Positions 1 to 7,163 of a stretch of 23,043 bases of DNA are shown in pieces. The stretch spans positions 1 to 23,043 of the IMG/VR virus record IMGVR_UViG_3300045988_132558; one strand, written 5' to 3'. The translations under genes and the position numbers were made by a program. Positions within the stretch are counted from its first letter, which is position 1. Each line of letters opens with the position of its first letter. The notes below the pieces were generated by a model. That model saw only the letters and a list, made by a program, of their open reading frames with translations, did no database searches and was not told where the DNA came from. This stretch comes from a virus (lineage: Duplodnaviria > Heunggongvirae > Uroviricota > Caudoviricetes).

Positions 1-30
1 AAAATCGTCATCCGATGGCATTCTAAAGCG

Positions 31-519
31 TTACCCCAACCTCAAGTTCTTTAAACGATAAGTCATCGCATCGTCAGATACGCCAAAATAATGCGCCATT
101 ATATAACTTGGTTGGCCGTCAGCGTGCAGTTTTCTGACCTCATCAACCGGCATCAGAAGTTCTGCTGCGAACTTGTTCGCAAAAATTTCATCAGGATGCG
201 TTCCGGCGCTTGCGGTTTCGCCACGTAAATCAACGTACTCATATTCATCACTATGCGATGCTTGCCGGGCGATGTAATGCCCCAACTCATGCCCACATGA
301 AAAACGTTGACGAACTTTGTTGTCATCACTGTTTAGAAAGATCGCTGGATCTTGATCTTTTTGTTTAATCAGTGCGCCAGAAACTTTCCCAGGAAGATCG
401 GTAATAAAAACATCTAATCCCATGTCGTGAGCAATTTTCGCTGGATCAACAGGGAAACCACGCCCGCACCAGAACGTGTCCAGCACTCGCCGGGCGTGCT
501 CTCTTGGGTTGGTAGCCAT
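31..519 (-). CDS. ImmA/IrrE-family zinc metallopeptidase (DUF955-like), 162 aa
   Basis: ORF track 31..519 (-). HEXXH zinc motif (FSCGHELGHY) with a downstream glutamate (ANKFAAELLMP), as in ImmA/IrrE peptidases. GGAGG Shine-Dalgarno 4-5 nt upstream of the ATG. Family assigned by motif recognition only. Confidence 0.7.
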   Translation of the reverse strand: MATNPREHARRVLDTFWCGRGFPVDPAKIAHDMGLDVFITDLPGKVSGALIKQKDQDPAIFLNSDDNKVRQRFSCGHELGHYIARQASHSDEYEYVDLRGETASAGTHPDEIFANKFAAELLMPVDEVRKLHADGQPSYIMAHYFGVSDDAMTYRLKNLRLG

Positions 520-591
520 AGCTCCTCCAGTTACTGCATTACGATTGTTGGTCGAAATATAGACAACATGTTCCGTACCACATTCCTGTAA

Positions 592-610
592 AAGTGCAAA
601 TTCTGCACTT
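592..610. promoter_or_regulatory. Perfect inverted repeat AAGTGCA-N5-TGCACTT (candidate operator) in the divergent intergenic region
   Basis: 7-bp arms are exact reverse complements with a 5-bp spacer (AATTC). Lies about 75 bp upstream of the ImmA-like gene start on the - strand. The repeat is a sequence fact; the regulatory role is inferred. Confidence 0.35.
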
Positions 611-891
611 CTGGTACGATATTAACTGTTAGTAGTAAAGTCTTCCAGATATATCACTTTAAAATCGTGTGAATTGCTTGCTTTTTACGCTGCATTGTGG
701 ATGGCTCAATGTTTCCAGTAAAAACATACATGATAATCATGAGATTAGTGGTTTTTTAGCATGATCTTAAGCCTGGTGCAGAAAATATCCCTTTAACGTA
801 TACCGCATTTTATGTCACACGCCAGAAGCCACACCCCAAGCGGCCTGATAAGAAAGCATCTACTGTTTGAAGGATTTTGAAGCTTTTTCCC

Positions 892-919
892 GTGACAAGA
901 TCCAGTTAACTGTTAGAAT
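892..919 (+). promoter_or_regulatory. Candidate sigma70 promoter for the 996..2158 operon: -35 GTGACA (892-897), 16-bp spacer, -10 TAGAAT (914-919); spacer contains the 10-bp palindrome CAGTTAACTG (903-912)
   Basis: Hexamers read directly from the sequence, each 5/6 match to consensus, about 75 nt upstream of the ATG at 996. No experimental support. Confidence 0.35.
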
Positions 920-995
920 TCTTCGAGCCGAATCGGTGGTTTTAGCCCATTCGTTAAAAATAAAAAGCATAAATATCATAGAGTAAGTTCAAAAC

Positions 996-1763
996 ATGCA
1001 GGCTCAACCTAAGACTAAACACCAAGAATTGGTCGATAAGCTATCATTCTACATAGACACCAAAACGCCTATAGAAGCTTTTGTGGCAGCAGATATTCAG
1101 CATGAGATTGGTTCTTTACCACCAGAATCCCGTTCTTATGTTACTGCTTTGCTTAAGGTTGCACTTAAAGATCATGATGCCGCTGTTGAGTGGTTCAAAG
1201 ACGCCATGATGACTTCTGGTGATAATTCGGCGATAGTTGCTGGTAACTATGTGGGCTACCTGAGCTGCTCTGGTCATAATCTTTTCCATAGAATGGAAGT
1301 GTTCCGCCTGGTTGACGTATTCTGTACGCAACGGATCAGAAAAATGGCGCGGAATGCTGCTTATTGCATCGGTAACGATAGGCTTGTTAAAAAGTATACC
1401 GTTATGATGAAAGCCTTACTTGATGGCGAAGAGCGAGATAGTATTGAACGTGAGGGCGCACAAATGGCAGAAGCTATTGTAAAATTCAAAGAGGCCACAG
1501 AGCTAACCTCATCTGAAATCGAGCAATTATGTGATGCTGCTGAACAGATTGCTAACAACCACGGCGTAAATTGTATCGGCATCGAATACTTCCTCAGTGG
1601 CGGATATGACAATGCAATTATCCTTTTCGCTGAAACTGAAGATTCCGATACACTTACGACGATGAATCTTGAACTAGTTGATCTTCTTGCTCATGATACT
1701 TACATTGACCGGCCTTTTACTTCGTGGTTTAAAAGCGCTGAAATGAAAGGAGCTGAACTATGA
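996..1763 (+). CDS. Hypothetical acidic protein, 255 aa (component A of a two-gene operon)
   Basis: ORF track 996..1763 (+). Stop TGA overlaps the ATG of the next ORF (ATGA at 1760-1763), suggesting translational coupling. No family recognised. Weak Shine-Dalgarno at 996, so the start is uncertain. Confidence 0.5.
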   Translation: MQAQPKTKHQELVDKLSFYIDTKTPIEAFVAADIQHEIGSLPPESRSYVTALLKVALKDHDAAVEWFKDAMMTSGDNSAIVAGNYVGYLSCSGHNLFHRMEVFRLVDVFCTQRIRKMARNAAYCIGNDRLVKKYTVMMKALLDGEERDSIEREGAQMAEAIVKFKEATELTSSEIEQLCDAAEQIANNHGVNCIGIEYFLSGGYDNAIILFAETEDSDTLTTMNLELVDLLAHDTYIDRPFTSWFKSAEMKGAEL

Positions 1764-2158
1764 GCGTAACTGGTCAGAACTTCATTGAGTTTGCAGATAA
1801 ATGCATCGCATTTGGAGATGAAATAGGATTCAGAAACGCGGTGGGACGTTCATACTATGGCGTGTTTCATGAAATCTGCAGCAAGTTAGAGCACTGCTAC
1901 GTACTGACATCTCATGAAGGTGTGCGTAAGTATTTAATGAGTGAAGCTCAGTGTAAGAAAGAGCCTTACGATAAAACAGCCCTGAGAAAGATTGGTGTCC
2001 TTTTACATCATCTGCATGTTCAAAGGAAATGGGCTGATTACACACTTGAGCGTGACTTGACCAAGGCTGACGCCGAATCTGCGATGAAATCCGCAAAGGA
2101 AGCCATGAAGCAAATCAAGACAATGCATGAGACGGTTTATCCGCCTTCCGCTGCATAA
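1760..2158 (+). CDS. Hypothetical protein, 132 aa (component B); weak HEPN-like R-x6-H signature
   Basis: ORF track 1760..2158 (+). AGGAG Shine-Dalgarno about 9 nt upstream of the ATG. Motif RSYYGVFH and a predicted all-helical, Lys-rich C-terminus. The HEPN assignment is tentative. Confidence 0.5.
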   Translation: MSVTGQNFIEFADKCIAFGDEIGFRNAVGRSYYGVFHEICSKLEHCYVLTSHEGVRKYLMSEAQCKKEPYDKTALRKIGVLLHHLHVQRKWADYTLERDLTKADAESAMKSAKEAMKQIKTMHETVYPPSAA

Positions 2159-2174
2159 GTAACATAGTCCTTAG

Positions 2175-2194
2175 CCCCACCCTGGTGGGGTTTT
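2175..2194 (+). terminator. Rho-independent terminator after the two-gene operon
   Basis: GC-rich stem CCCCAC/GTGGGG with a 4-nt loop followed by TTTT, 17 nt after the stop of the 1760..2158 ORF. Confidence 0.55.
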
Positions 2195-2444
2195 ACGCCT
2201 GGCTGCTGAGGCAGGTGTGTTTAAACAAATCCCCGCGAGATGCAGTGGGTCAGTTCTTTTTCCCTTTTCGTCGAGCGCTTCTTTTACCCACTCTTCAAGT
2301 TTCATTTTGCGAGCTCTGGCGCTGTTGTTCCATACTGCTTTTTGAGAGCCGTTACAGGAACGCCTTTTTCTCTCCAGTCATTATCTTTCCCTGGAGTACT
2401 GATAAAGACGACTCCATCAACAAACATTTTATGATGTGATGTAC

Positions 2445-2469
2445 AAAAAGAAAAATCCCGCTATGCGGG
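2445..2469 (-). terminator. Rho-independent terminator oriented for - strand transcription
   Basis: On the - strand: stem CCCGC-ATA-GCGGG followed immediately by ATTTTTCTTTTT. On the + strand the T-run is displaced, so orientation is minus. Confidence 0.45.
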
Positions 2470-2699
2470 GTTAACCTGATTTTTTTTTCGCTTCTTACTT
2501 CTTATCCCACATTCCATGCATTCTTTCTATCTCAGCATCAGTTAAATCATCCAGCCCAACAATTTCAGAGCCGTGACGATAAACGAAAACGCACACACTC
2601 TCCAACGTTAGTCAAAAATAGTCACGCGCCGCGCAGCACCCGCGCTCACTCGATTATTTATAATACCTATGGATTATTTATATATCATATGGGGATATT

Positions 2700-3332
2700 A
2701 TGAATGGTTTTTACGACGACTGGCCTGAAACGTTCGTCACCCGACTGGACATGTTGCGAGTGCTGGATAACAGAGGGGCAACCCGGAGACTCTACACAAA
2801 ACGTACAGGGGCGATTTACAACGCGCTGGCAGACGAGGTTCGTGAGGCTGTGACTGGATTCAATACCAGTGAACTCGACTTAGGACCACTCTACCGGTAT
2901 TACAAATGTGGAGGAGAGGGCGACGCGCTGGCAGACACACTGATCGCACTGGCGCCGACTGTGTGCAGGCGCGTAATGATTTCCCCTGACGTATACACAA
3001 TACCGTACCTGTTTTTTGCGCTGTTGATAGCGCGAGGAGAGGACGACGATGCACGTGATTTTTTCAATATGATGATGCGGCCACTAATCGTGGCGTACCG
3101 GTTCAAACAACTGGCGCGTTACCTGGGAACAAAGGGCGGAGGGAGGCCACAGCACAGGCTAAAAGACGAGGCATTACAGATTGCAGAGGTTTTTTTCACA
3201 AATAACCCCCACGCACGGGTTAGTGCGGCGGTGGCACGTATTAACGAAATTCTCGTAAAAAAATATGCTGACGTTCCGGCGGAATCAACTATTAGAAAAT
3301 GGTTAACCCCTGTTTATGGAAATGAAAAATAA
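2700..3332 (+). CDS. Hypothetical protein, 210 aa
   Basis: ORF track 2700..3332 (+). GGGGA Shine-Dalgarno-like sequence upstream, and a TATAAT hexamer at 2667-2672. No family recognised. Confidence 0.5.
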   Translation: MNGFYDDWPETFVTRLDMLRVLDNRGATRRLYTKRTGAIYNALADEVREAVTGFNTSELDLGPLYRYYKCGGEGDALADTLIALAPTVCRRVMISPDVYTIPYLFFALLIARGEDDDARDFFNMMMRPLIVAYRFKQLARYLGTKGGGRPQHRLKDEALQIAEVFFTNNPHARVSAAVARINEILVKKYADVPAESTIRKWLTPVYGNEK

Positions 3333-3374
3333 TAACCATAAACCGTTTTTTCCGGGAATAAACCGTTTAATCAA

Positions 3375-3389
3375 ATTCACGAGGTGAAT
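3375..3389. promoter_or_regulatory. Inverted repeat ATTCAC-GAG-GTGAAT (candidate operator)
   Basis: Exact 6-bp arms with a 3-bp spacer, about 90 bp upstream of the small ORF at 3482, next to a TTGACG hexamer at 3418-3423. Confidence 0.25.
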
Positions 3390-3481
3390 GTAATTGTTCA
3401 TTATCCCCCCATTGTATTTGACGTTATGACAAATGGTCACGAATACTGTATAAATATACAGGATTTCTGTCAGGGGGAAAT

Positions 3482-3661
3482 ATGAACACACACAAGGCAA
3501 TCAGCAAATTACCGGATACGTGCCGGGCTGTAATCAAACGAGAAGAAGGGCGCGTAGTGAGTGTGCGCGTTCTCAGCAACGACGAGCGGATTGCCAGCCT
3601 GATGGCGTTTCTCGAGTTGGCAGAAATAGCTGGATATACTATTACACCCCCTGAAGCGTAA
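3482..3661 (+). CDS. Small hypothetical protein, 59 aa (below the ORF-track cutoff)
   Basis: Found by manual translation: ATG at 3482 preceded by GGGGGA about 5 nt upstream, open for 59 codons to TAA at 3659-3661 (MNTHKAISKLPDTCRAVIKREEGRVVSVRVLSNDERIASLMAFLELAEIAGYTITPPEA). Confidence 0.35.
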   Translation: MNTHKAISKLPDTCRAVIKREEGRVVSVRVLSNDERIASLMAFLELAEIAGYTITPPEA

Positions 3662-3737
3662 AACACGGTATAATACTGGTGCTGGATTGAACACCCGGCA
3701 CCACTTCTGAACACTGCCGCGCCACCTGGAGTTAACC

Positions 3738-4334
3738 ATGGCGCAGCATTCATTTATCAGGGTATCCGGCGGTTCGCTAATACCCGCGACACCAGACACG
3801 CAACGCTGGTTGACTGAACGAGTCAAACCAGGTGCTGTTGTGTATGCAGATTTCAAACAGGCGCGTAATCCCGCGTTTCATCGTAAATTTTTCTCACTTC
3901 TCAACCTGGGCTTTGATTACTGGCATCCCTCCGGAGGGGCTATTTCTCCTGCGGAGCGCGAACTGGTTCACGGATACGTTAAGTTACTGGCGTATTACGG
4001 TGGGCATGGTGATGTCATGGCTGAGCTGGCTGATCAGTATCTTCTCGATGAGTCGGAAAAGCGCGCGGGGAATATCAGTGCGGTGAAGTCGTTCGAGGCG
4101 TTTCGCGCCTGGGCGACTATGGAAGCTGGATTTTATGACGTTCATCAGATGCCAGATGGTAGTTTGATGCGTGTACCTCGTTCAATTTCGTTTGCAGCGA
4201 TGGACGATCTTGAGTTCGGTCAACTGTATTCAGCCGTTTTAGATGTGCTGTGGAATTATATTTTGTTCCGCACGTTTGCCTCTCAGGAGGCCGCTGAAAA
4301 TGCTGCCGCGCAGCTGCTGGATTACACATCATGA
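3738..4334 (+). CDS. Phage nin-region protein, DUF1367-like (about 200 aa)
   Basis: ORF track 3738..4334 (+). Size and position directly upstream of a YbcO-like gene match a pairing I recall from enterobacterial lambdoid prophages. Stop overlaps the next start (ATGA at 4331-4334). Family name from memory only. Confidence 0.45.
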   Translation: MAQHSFIRVSGGSLIPATPDTQRWLTERVKPGAVVYADFKQARNPAFHRKFFSLLNLGFDYWHPSGGAISPAERELVHGYVKLLAYYGGHGDVMAELADQYLLDESEKRAGNISAVKSFEAFRAWATMEAGFYDVHQMPDGSLMRVPRSISFAAMDDLEFGQLYSAVLDVLWNYILFRTFASQEAAENAAAQLLDYTS

Positions 4335-6740: not shown

Positions 6741-6841
6741 TTGTAACTTGCTGTTTTCGATATTAAGTACCTTGAATTAGGTTTACGAGTTGGCATTATA
6801 GAAAAACTATATGGTTCACTAATGTGACATAAGGAAATATT

Positions 6842-7090
6842 ATGCCTAAGTTAAAACTTGTTAAGACATTGCTATTGCCAGGTAATAATAAGTATGAGAT
6901 TTATGCAAGAAATGAATATAGCAACGTAGAACAAATTATTCACTATAAACTGCGCTCTTGTAAGAACGAGCAAGGCCAGGATGGAATGTCTGAGGCGCAA
7001 TGGGTTATTTATAATCCATTGTTTCCATTACCAGATGACCGCAATTATGCAAGTGTATCAAATATAGACGACTATCTGGTCGATTGCTAA
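6842..7090 (+). CDS. Hypothetical protein, 82 aa (moron)
   Basis: ORF track 6842..7090 (+). AAGGAA Shine-Dalgarno upstream, AT-rich promoter-like region 6770-6800, strong terminator just downstream (7101-7121). Confidence 0.45.
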   Translation: MPKLKLVKTLLLPGNNKYEIYARNEYSNVEQIIHYKLRSCKNEQGQDGMSEAQWVIYNPLFPLPDDRNYASVSNIDDYLVDC

Positions 7091-7100
7091 GTGAAATCAA

Positions 7101-7121
7101 ACCGCCTATGGGCGGTTTTTA
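7101..7121. terminator. Bidirectional Rho-independent terminator
   Basis: Stem ACCGCC-TATG-GGCGGT flanked by AAA upstream and TTTTT downstream, between the convergent genes 6842..7090 (+) and 7164..7634 (-). Confidence 0.6.
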
Positions 7122-7163
7122 TTGCCATCACCATGGGAAGACATATAGTAATGGCATTTATCA

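Follow-up and report, generated by a model that had tools for sequence, protein, structure and literature searches.

A divergent HEPN protein and its TPR-like partner in a prophage cassette: a candidate toxin-antitoxin or abortive-infection module

Does a small prophage gene whose product contains the stretch RSYYGVFH encode a HEPN protein, and what might such a protein do there? Cas13, Csm6, RnlA, HepT, HepS and many abortive-infection systems have HEPN nucleases as their effectors. The question is raised by a gene for a 132-amino-acid protein (positions 1760-2158) in a 23,043-nucleotide stretch of DNA from a virus of the Caudoviricetes (IMG/VR record IMGVR_UViG_3300045988_132558, positions 1 to 23,043), the whole of which is called the window in this report. 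The initial annotation, made from the letters of the window, had read RSYYGVFH as a weak Rx4-6H signature of HEPN ribonucleases (RNases) in a predicted all-helical protein. We report here that the protein has a HEPN fold, that its conserved residues resemble those of the AF0298-like HEPN-T (UPF0332) proteins, and that its gene is paired with an upstream gene for a TPR-like protein in a cassette carried by prophages. We also discuss what this cassette may do.

Fold, family and conserved residues of the 132-amino-acid protein

The open reading frame is present as annotated, with a product starting MSVTGQNF and RSYYGVFH at amino acids 30-37. Its start overlaps the stop of an upstream 255-amino-acid frame by 4 nucleotides (ATGA at 1760-1763), and AGGAG is found 7 nucleotides upstream of the start. 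Comparison with a copy in Pectobacterium gave nonsynonymous divergences (dN) of 0.16 and 0.18 for the HEPN gene and the partner gene, respectively. Because synonymous sites are saturated, the ratio to synonymous divergence (dN/dS) was mostly uncomputable, and the sole computable value is 0.07, for the partner gene. Judging from these sequence features, the 132-amino-acid gene is real and under constraint.

When the protein was searched alone, no match was obtained in Pfam, NCBIfam or PADLOC (for Pfam, no PF05168 at E <= 1), and a scan of PHROGs returned only phrog_5176, whose function is listed as unknown. An exhaustive profile search gave 1179 related representatives of 50%-identity clusters at E <= 1e-3; the top 150 of these are all stand-alone proteins, nearly all of about 115-155 amino acids, with a few short fragments. 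The family alignment comprises 95 relatives, with 23-57% identity to the protein, and the residue counts below refer to this alignment unless otherwise stated. Against the PDB, a profile of close homologues found 9xbd at E 0.028, and the 95-member profile found 9xbd, 9xbc and AF0298 (2hsb) at E 1.6e-13, 1.9e-12 and 1.2e-8, respectively, over nearly the full length. The first two are solved structures named HEPN, and 2hsb is named "UPF0332 protein". The Pfam HEPN family PF05168 is matched individually by 38 of the 95 relatives (best E 1.3e-7), in NCBI or JGI records many relatives carry the name "HEPN domain-containing" or "UPF0332 family", and an identical protein of E. coli is labelled UPF0332 family by JGI.

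An AlphaFold2 model built with 15 close homologues (mean predicted local distance difference test score, pLDDT, 87.2; predicted template modelling score 0.82) is wholly helical, in agreement with the earlier prediction, with helices at amino acids 5-18, 21-42, 52-60, 64-67, 72-94 and 102-126. Fold and profile evidence together establish a HEPN fold with high confidence, and the profile comparisons place the protein as a divergent member of the AF0298-like HEPN-T/UPF0332 clade. The HEPN-like domain suggested by the initial annotation is thus borne out by the family profile, by PF05168 in relatives and by the fold, although the reasoning that led to it is not, since the motif match is at chance level and in the wrong position (see below). 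The profile search against HEPN families that had been suggested as a check was positive with the 95-member profile, though not with the single sequence. Since the single-sequence scans were empty, a direct profile search would wrongly have turned us away from HEPN; recognising it took both a family profile and a structure.

The canonical Rx4-6H motif of HEPN proteins is located where helix 3 ends, and a second conserved element, Ex3[KR], is located in helix 2 near the catalytic motif (PMC3710099). In the HEPN-T proteins typified by AF0298, the motif His is typically absent, often with Asp instead, and the Arg is retained; a second conserved His, in an insert between helices 2 and 3, has been proposed as the replacement catalytic His of an alternative active site (PMC3710099). 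In the 132-amino-acid protein, the segment R89-Y94 at the end of the modelled helix 3 aligns with "RNRSDY" of 9xbd and "REESDY" of 2hsb. The Arg is kept there, no His is found at +5 to +7 (position 94 being Tyr throughout the family), and D93 occupies the position of the motif His. The insert His is present as H52 which, like D93, aligns with 2hsb and 9xbd, and the Ex3[KR] element of helix 2 is present as E21/R25. Six residues (E21, R25, Y33, R89, D93 and Y94) are invariant in the relatives, and R30, Y32, H37 and H52 are conserved in at least 96%. As far as the alignment can tell, this conservation is enzyme-like and matches the "alternative active site" of AF0298-like HEPN-T proteins (PMC3710099).

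Chains of 9xbd (wild type) and 9xbc (variant), by sequence the closest relatives with a solved structure, differ at the residue equivalent to Y94 by a change of Tyr to Phe (RNRSDY and RNRSDF), which suggests that the depositors regard this Tyr as functionally important. A literature search for these two PDB entries found no associated paper.

The partner gene and the mobile cassette

Scans of Pfam, NCBIfam, PADLOC and PHROGs gave no family assignment for the 255-amino-acid protein encoded directly upstream. Its predicted structure (pLDDT 88) consists of helical repeats at amino acids 8-140, a long helix and a small C-terminal alpha/beta unit. A directly upstream gene of about 245-285 amino acids was found at all of the 42 HEPN loci examined. 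On IMG/VR viral contigs, 28 of 28 loci have a frame of 250-284 amino acids that matches a hidden Markov model (HMM) of the partner (E <= 7e-21) and ends a few bases from the HEPN start; the two genes overlap by 1-14 nucleotides in all 28, and most other loci overlap too, with a few that abut or are up to about 11 nucleotides apart. The 14 further paired contexts, independent of these, are those of E. coli (L002-L007), Pectobacterium, an Enterobacteriaceae isolate and Serratia and, where HEPN identity is only 22-35%, those of Vibrio, Kosakonia, Salmonella, Pseudomonas, three metagenome contigs and three phages (Klebsiella phage ST405-OXA48phi1.3, Klebsiella phage vB_Kpn_Chronis gp57-58 and Pseudomonas phage YMC11/02/R656). 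The pairing is therefore obligate among the loci sampled.

Homology of the partner is backed by HMM or hhalign for most of these 14 contexts, and the distant partners have 16-27% identity among themselves. Comparison of partner sets by hhalign gave 97.8% (E 1.2e-12) for A3, the close partners, with A4, and 96.5% (E 8.4e-10) for A4 with A5, the most distant ones; the direct comparison of A3 with A5 was not significant, and the two are linked only via the intermediate set A4. A tblastn search of phages with the partner found no match because the partner diverges too fast, and HMM and hhalign were used instead. When four distant partners were compared, one invariant polar residue was found, the Asn of an N-x-x-L motif, and the conserved C-terminal residues of the partner were lost. 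With its TPR-like fold and this single invariant polar residue, the partner looks non-enzymatic. Since it keeps one polar residue and the HEPN protein keeps ten polar or aromatic ones, the pattern is that expected of a binding or sensing protein paired with an enzyme. A minimal nucleotidyltransferase (MNT) was considered as the partner and rejected: the upstream protein is TPR-like, without a nucleotidyltransferase fold or motif, and an MNT is found at 0 of the 42 loci.

Within positions 1-4000 of the window, only 888-2196 has nucleotide homology to the copy in Pectobacterium carotovorum (L011), with 71% over 1317 nucleotides, and that copy occupies a different prophage position. A related E. 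coli prophage (YZMc3-1, L001) matches 1-759 and 2709-4000 of the window and has other DNA between them, so 760-2708 is a variable slot. The GC content of the cassette is 41-45%, compared with 50-55% in the nin/Q region. The cassette is inserted between replication and nin/Q genes in the window, after Q in Serratia, after tail-fibre genes in Pectobacterium and the Enterobacteriaceae isolate, beside integrases in Kosakonia, Salmonella and Pseudomonas and, in a P2-like Vibrio prophage, between the portal and replication genes. A megablast search of phage genomes with 900-2300 found no match, and no complete E. coli genome was found to carry the cassette at the megablast level. These comparisons indicate a self-contained unit that moves among accessory slots of temperate phages.

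From the P2 gene map, we take the Vibrio position to be the old/tin anti-phage hotspot of P2. This hotspot has been described (PMC9122126). The prophage to which the window belongs encodes a 339-amino-acid homologue of PD-T7-5 (PADLOC E 1.8e-102; L002:6392-7411) about 1.8 kb left of the window start, and a sister prophage (L004) has a DUF2971 gene and a 291-amino-acid gene at that position. Since the PD-T7-5 position is filled differently in the sister, the replication-nin region behaves as a defence island.

Positions of the cassette, of its conserved residues and of one neighbouring gene are listed in Table 1. The neighbour, a divergent ImmA/IrrE metallopeptidase, was rejected as part of the system, as it is in the flank shared with the cassette-less prophage and is absent from the other cassette contexts. 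It is followed, outside the window, by a 201-amino-acid gene without a family, and no helix-turn-helix repressor partner is visible in the window.

Table 1. Positions in the window of the cassette, its parts and a flanking gene
Feature	Position	Strand	Remark
Two-gene cassette: promoter-like site, partner gene, HEPN gene, terminal hairpin	888..2196	+	Nucleotide homology to L011
Candidate sigma-70-like promoter, GTGACA-16-TAGAAT with TG	892..919	+	10/12 consensus, best in 450-2750; just inside the left edge of the cassette
Partner gene, 255 amino acids	996..1763	+	TPR-like repeat at about amino acids 8-140, long helix, small C-terminal alpha/beta domain; proposed antitoxin/sensor
HEPN-T (AF0298-like/UPF0332) protein gene, 132 amino acids	1760..2158	+	Proposed effector or toxin
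E21-x3-R25 (E21-I-G-F-R25), Ex3[KR] motif	1820..1834	+	Helix 2 start; E21 and R25 each 95/95
R30-SYYGVF-H37, R-x6-H of the initial annotation	1847..1870	+	Helix 2; conserved in the family, off the canonical motif position
H52, insert His	1913..1915	+	94/95; aligns with His of "SKTH" (AF0298) and "SSH" (9xbd)
R89-K-W-A-D93-Y94, canonical HEPN motif position	2024..2041	+	Helix 3 end; R89, D93 and Y94 each 95/95
Candidate terminator: GC-rich hairpin, then U-run	2173..2192	+	15 nucleotides past the stop codon; minimum free energy -13.1 kcal/mol
ImmA/IrrE (Peptidase_M78) metallopeptidase	31-519	-	Best PADLOC match CapP (E 2.4e-25), RmrA models next

Several other features were observed in the surrounding DNA. 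The rest of the variable slot to the right of the cassette (2197-2708, about 510 bp) has no convincing open reading frame and no Rfam match, as an Rfam scan of the entire window found no RNA family; on its minus strand there are a promoter-like site (2688-2660) and two terminator-like hairpins (2635-2623 and 2469-2457), and this DNA could represent a remnant or a small transcript. The cassette-free E. coli prophage YZMc3-1 has a SMEK-domain gene at L001:2029-2928, with an S-adenosylmethionine-dependent methyltransferase gene nearby; in a part of the DefensePredictor supplement, a SMEK-domain protein is given among the candidate systems. Farther along the window, from the lysis genes to terminase (6800-8500), the GC content is low (37-44%), and the frames at 6842-7090 (+), 7164-7634 (-) and 7920-8483 (-) are of unknown kind, with no Pfam or PADLOC match. 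Since two sister prophages (L004 and L007) carry a Lar-like restriction-alleviation frame at this site, it is a second variable accessory slot. In two public records an intact HEPN frame is mis-annotated: in Klebsiella phage ST405-OXA48phi1.3 (MK416008; L021:3501-3896) the record splits it into two small coding sequences, and in Serratia rubidaea (LS483492; L008:6759-7154) it is uncalled and overlaps the start of a methyltransferase gene.

A proposed mechanism and its alternatives

On balance, we lean slightly towards regarding the cassette as a toxin-antitoxin-like or abortive-infection module, in which a dimer of the HEPN protein would act as a metal-independent RNase and the TPR-like protein would be its restraint and probably also the sensor. 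The order in which a restraint gene precedes an overlapping effector gene is typical of type II toxin-antitoxin operons. Overlapping, co-oriented genes and a location on mobile elements are both observed here, and this context makes a link to toxin-antitoxin or abortive-infection systems plausible. Instead of the MNT that usually accompanies the HEPN-T lineage, the cassette has a TPR-like protein of about 255 amino acids that evolves fast. The HEPN protein may dimerise and cleave RNA at a non-canonical site formed by R89/D93/Y94 at the end of helix 3, H52 in the insert between helices 2 and 3, E21/R25 in helix 2 and perhaps R30/H37. Binding of the TPR-like partner would hold it inactive. Titration, displacement or degradation of the partner would set it free, for instance once the partner binds a protein from an infecting phage, and the RNA cleavage that follows would cause growth arrest, as in toxin-antitoxin-like or abortive-infection defence.

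Several observations weigh against this proposal. The HEPN protein has 0 matches to the 5027 defence models of PADLOC (PADLOC-DB 2.0.0), the partner has only a match to DndA at E 0.021, which is noise, and the DefensePredictor supplements contain neither accessions nor peptides of either protein. The promoter scan as a whole is not enriched over shuffled sequences, which makes the promoter call weak, and the terminal hairpin is weak too (z only -1.2 versus shuffles) and was not called by the terminator scan. Residence in prophage accessory slots is evidence by association, and addiction modules, superinfection exclusion or anti-defence genes would fit it too. Literature searches on UPF0332, COG1895 and AF0298 turned up no report of an AF0298-like HEPN-T protein acting as an RNase. 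Finally, the canonical catalytic His is absent, and HEPN proteins without it include non-catalytic binding domains, e.g. those of sacsin and the C-terminal domains of nucleotidyltransferases (PMC3710099).

This last point leads to the main rival, which we judge to be unlikely: the HEPN protein would be a non-catalytic adaptor or regulator that binds a ligand, a nucleotide or RNA, as the HEPN domains of sacsin or kanamycin nucleotidyltransferase do, and the effector would be elsewhere, for example in the C-terminal alpha/beta domain of the partner or in a recruited host factor. It is opposed by the (near-)invariance of ten polar or aromatic residues at the identities found in the family, which include the Ex3R, the motif Arg and the insert His proposed as an alternative RNase site (PMC3710099). 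An enzyme in the partner is also argued against, because the conserved C-terminal residues are lost in distant partners and a single Asn is invariant.

Another rival is that the cassette serves only for addiction, as a toxin-antitoxin module by which the prophage is stabilised, and has no defence role against other phages. We consider this quite improbable, even though the two-gene layout with overlapping genes and the constant location of the cassette on mobile elements speak for it. What argues against it is the choice of slots, which gather defence genes: the cassette is found beside PD-T7-5, next to integrases and, apparently, at the old/tin position of P2, a correspondence that we assume from the gene map. 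Moreover, TPR domains are sensors in several defence systems (PMC9122126). Addiction and defence roles are not mutually exclusive.

The RSYYGVFH stretch itself suggests another active site, in which R30-x6-H37 would be the catalytic Rx4-6H of a canonical HEPN RNase, shifted N-terminally. In the alignments, RSYYGVFH corresponds to "sRAYYAMFY" of 9xbd and "sTAYYAMFH" of AF0298, where Thr replaces R30, and the "YYaxfH" stretch of helix 2, which thus recurs in solved HEPN structures, is presumably a core element of the PF05168 profile. Conservation of the stretch is strong (R30 in 91, Y32 in 94, Y33 in 95 and H37 in 93 of the 95 relatives), and R30 and H37, being seven residues apart, are on the same face of helix 2. 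As a pattern match, however, R-x(4-6)-H is no better than chance in this protein: of 20,000 shuffles that preserve its composition, 62% contain the pattern one or more times, with a mean of 0.93 per shuffle. A second match, R76..H83, is present in the protein and is listed as not conserved on weaker grounds, since in the alignment of close homologues position 83 does not fall in an invariant or near-invariant column. The feature of R30/H37 that exceeds chance is therefore their conservation, not the match. Since the canonical motif is at the end of helix 3 (PMC3710099), where 2hsb and 9xbd place R89..Y94, RSYYGVFH is off the position of the Rx4-6H signature, and the caveat attached to it in the initial annotation (N-terminal placement and spacing at the edge of the range) was justified. 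Catalysis by R30/H37 in their own right is accordingly very unlikely in our opinion, and the two residues may line the same pocket as R89/H52.

Least probable of all is a phage counter-defence or lysogeny-control module, e.g. one in which the HEPN protein processes specific host or phage RNAs at prophage induction. In its favour, temperate phages, including the isolates vB_Kpn_Chronis (gp57-58) and YMC11/02/R656, carry the cassette, in some cases among early or nin-region genes. Against it, a promoter-like site of its own, a lower GC content and mobility that does not depend on position are traits of morons with expression from the prophage, and the lack of a conserved position within phage genomes speaks against an integrated part for the cassette in the life cycle of the phage.

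The cassette joins an effector fold that is already known to an obligate partner and a genomic lifestyle that are both new. It is a testable candidate for a prophage system of defence or toxin type that would be new, and for a first activity assignment in the His-less HEPN-T branch. A literature search on the function of UPF0332, COG1895 and AF0298 found no functional paper on the clade. More tentatively, and as a possibility that we would not call probable, it may be an undescribed, widespread two-gene anti-phage system of temperate phages, in which a rapidly diversifying TPR-like sensor/antitoxin restrains an AF0298-type HEPN nuclease and frees it on recognising a phage protein. If this is true, the large HEPN-T/UPF0332 clade that lacks the canonical His would gain its first functional assignment, with the "alternative" His52/Arg89 site demonstrated for the first time, and the clade would have swapped its ancestral nucleotidyltransferase partner for a protein-binding sensor. 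Structures of this AF0298-like branch have been available since 2006, with no demonstrated activity in the literature searched, and the cassette provides a tractable E. coli handle on it, being small and self-contained, with a clear set of invariant residues open to mutation and a new type of obligate partner. Should it prove anti-phage, a new two-gene system is added to the defence repertoire of prophages, together with another coupling of a repeat-domain sensor to an RNase. If it does not, the annotation is still corrected for proteins that all the E. coli, phage and other enterobacterial records examined call hypothetical.

Comparison with known systems

The closest relatives are the AF0298-like HEPN-T proteins (PF05168/UPF0332/COG1895; 2hsb, 1ufb, 1wol and 9xbd). 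They have the same size (about 125-135 amino acids) and share the "YYaxfH" of helix 2, the insert His and the "R-x3-D-Y" at the end of helix 3, with the canonical His lost and the Arg retained (PMC3710099). The 132-amino-acid protein differs in being below the detection level of Pfam, and its membership is visible only through the family profile; R30 and E21-x3-R25 are (near-)invariant in the cassette clade, whereas R30 is Thr in AF0298. The genomic partner also differs, being TPR-like and not an MNT. MNT-HEPN modules are expanded in archaea and thermophiles (PMC3710099), whereas the hosts here are prophages of Gammaproteobacteria.

In the type VII HepT/MntA systems (Shewanella SO_3166/SO_3165, 5yep; Aphanizomenon, 7ae2), HepT belongs to the DUF86 branch and has RX4HXY, with a Tyr that can be AMPylated, whereas R-x3-D-Y without His is found here. 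MntA is an adenylyltransferase; with a partner that is no nucleotidyltransferase, the present HEPN protein is not expected to be neutralised by AMPylation. The abortive-infection HEPN proteins of prophages, HepS of Gifsy-1 (PMC13043305; 218 amino acids in the PDB chain) and Tha of S. aureus prophages (PMC11087260), are single larger proteins, and AbiV is a protein-RNA pair (preprint 10.1101/2024.05.05.592566). There is no significant sequence relationship to HepS, Tha or AbiV, and the PADLOC models of AbiV and other HEPN proteins give no match. In contrast to these systems, sensing or restraint in the present cassette would fall to a separate TPR-like protein.

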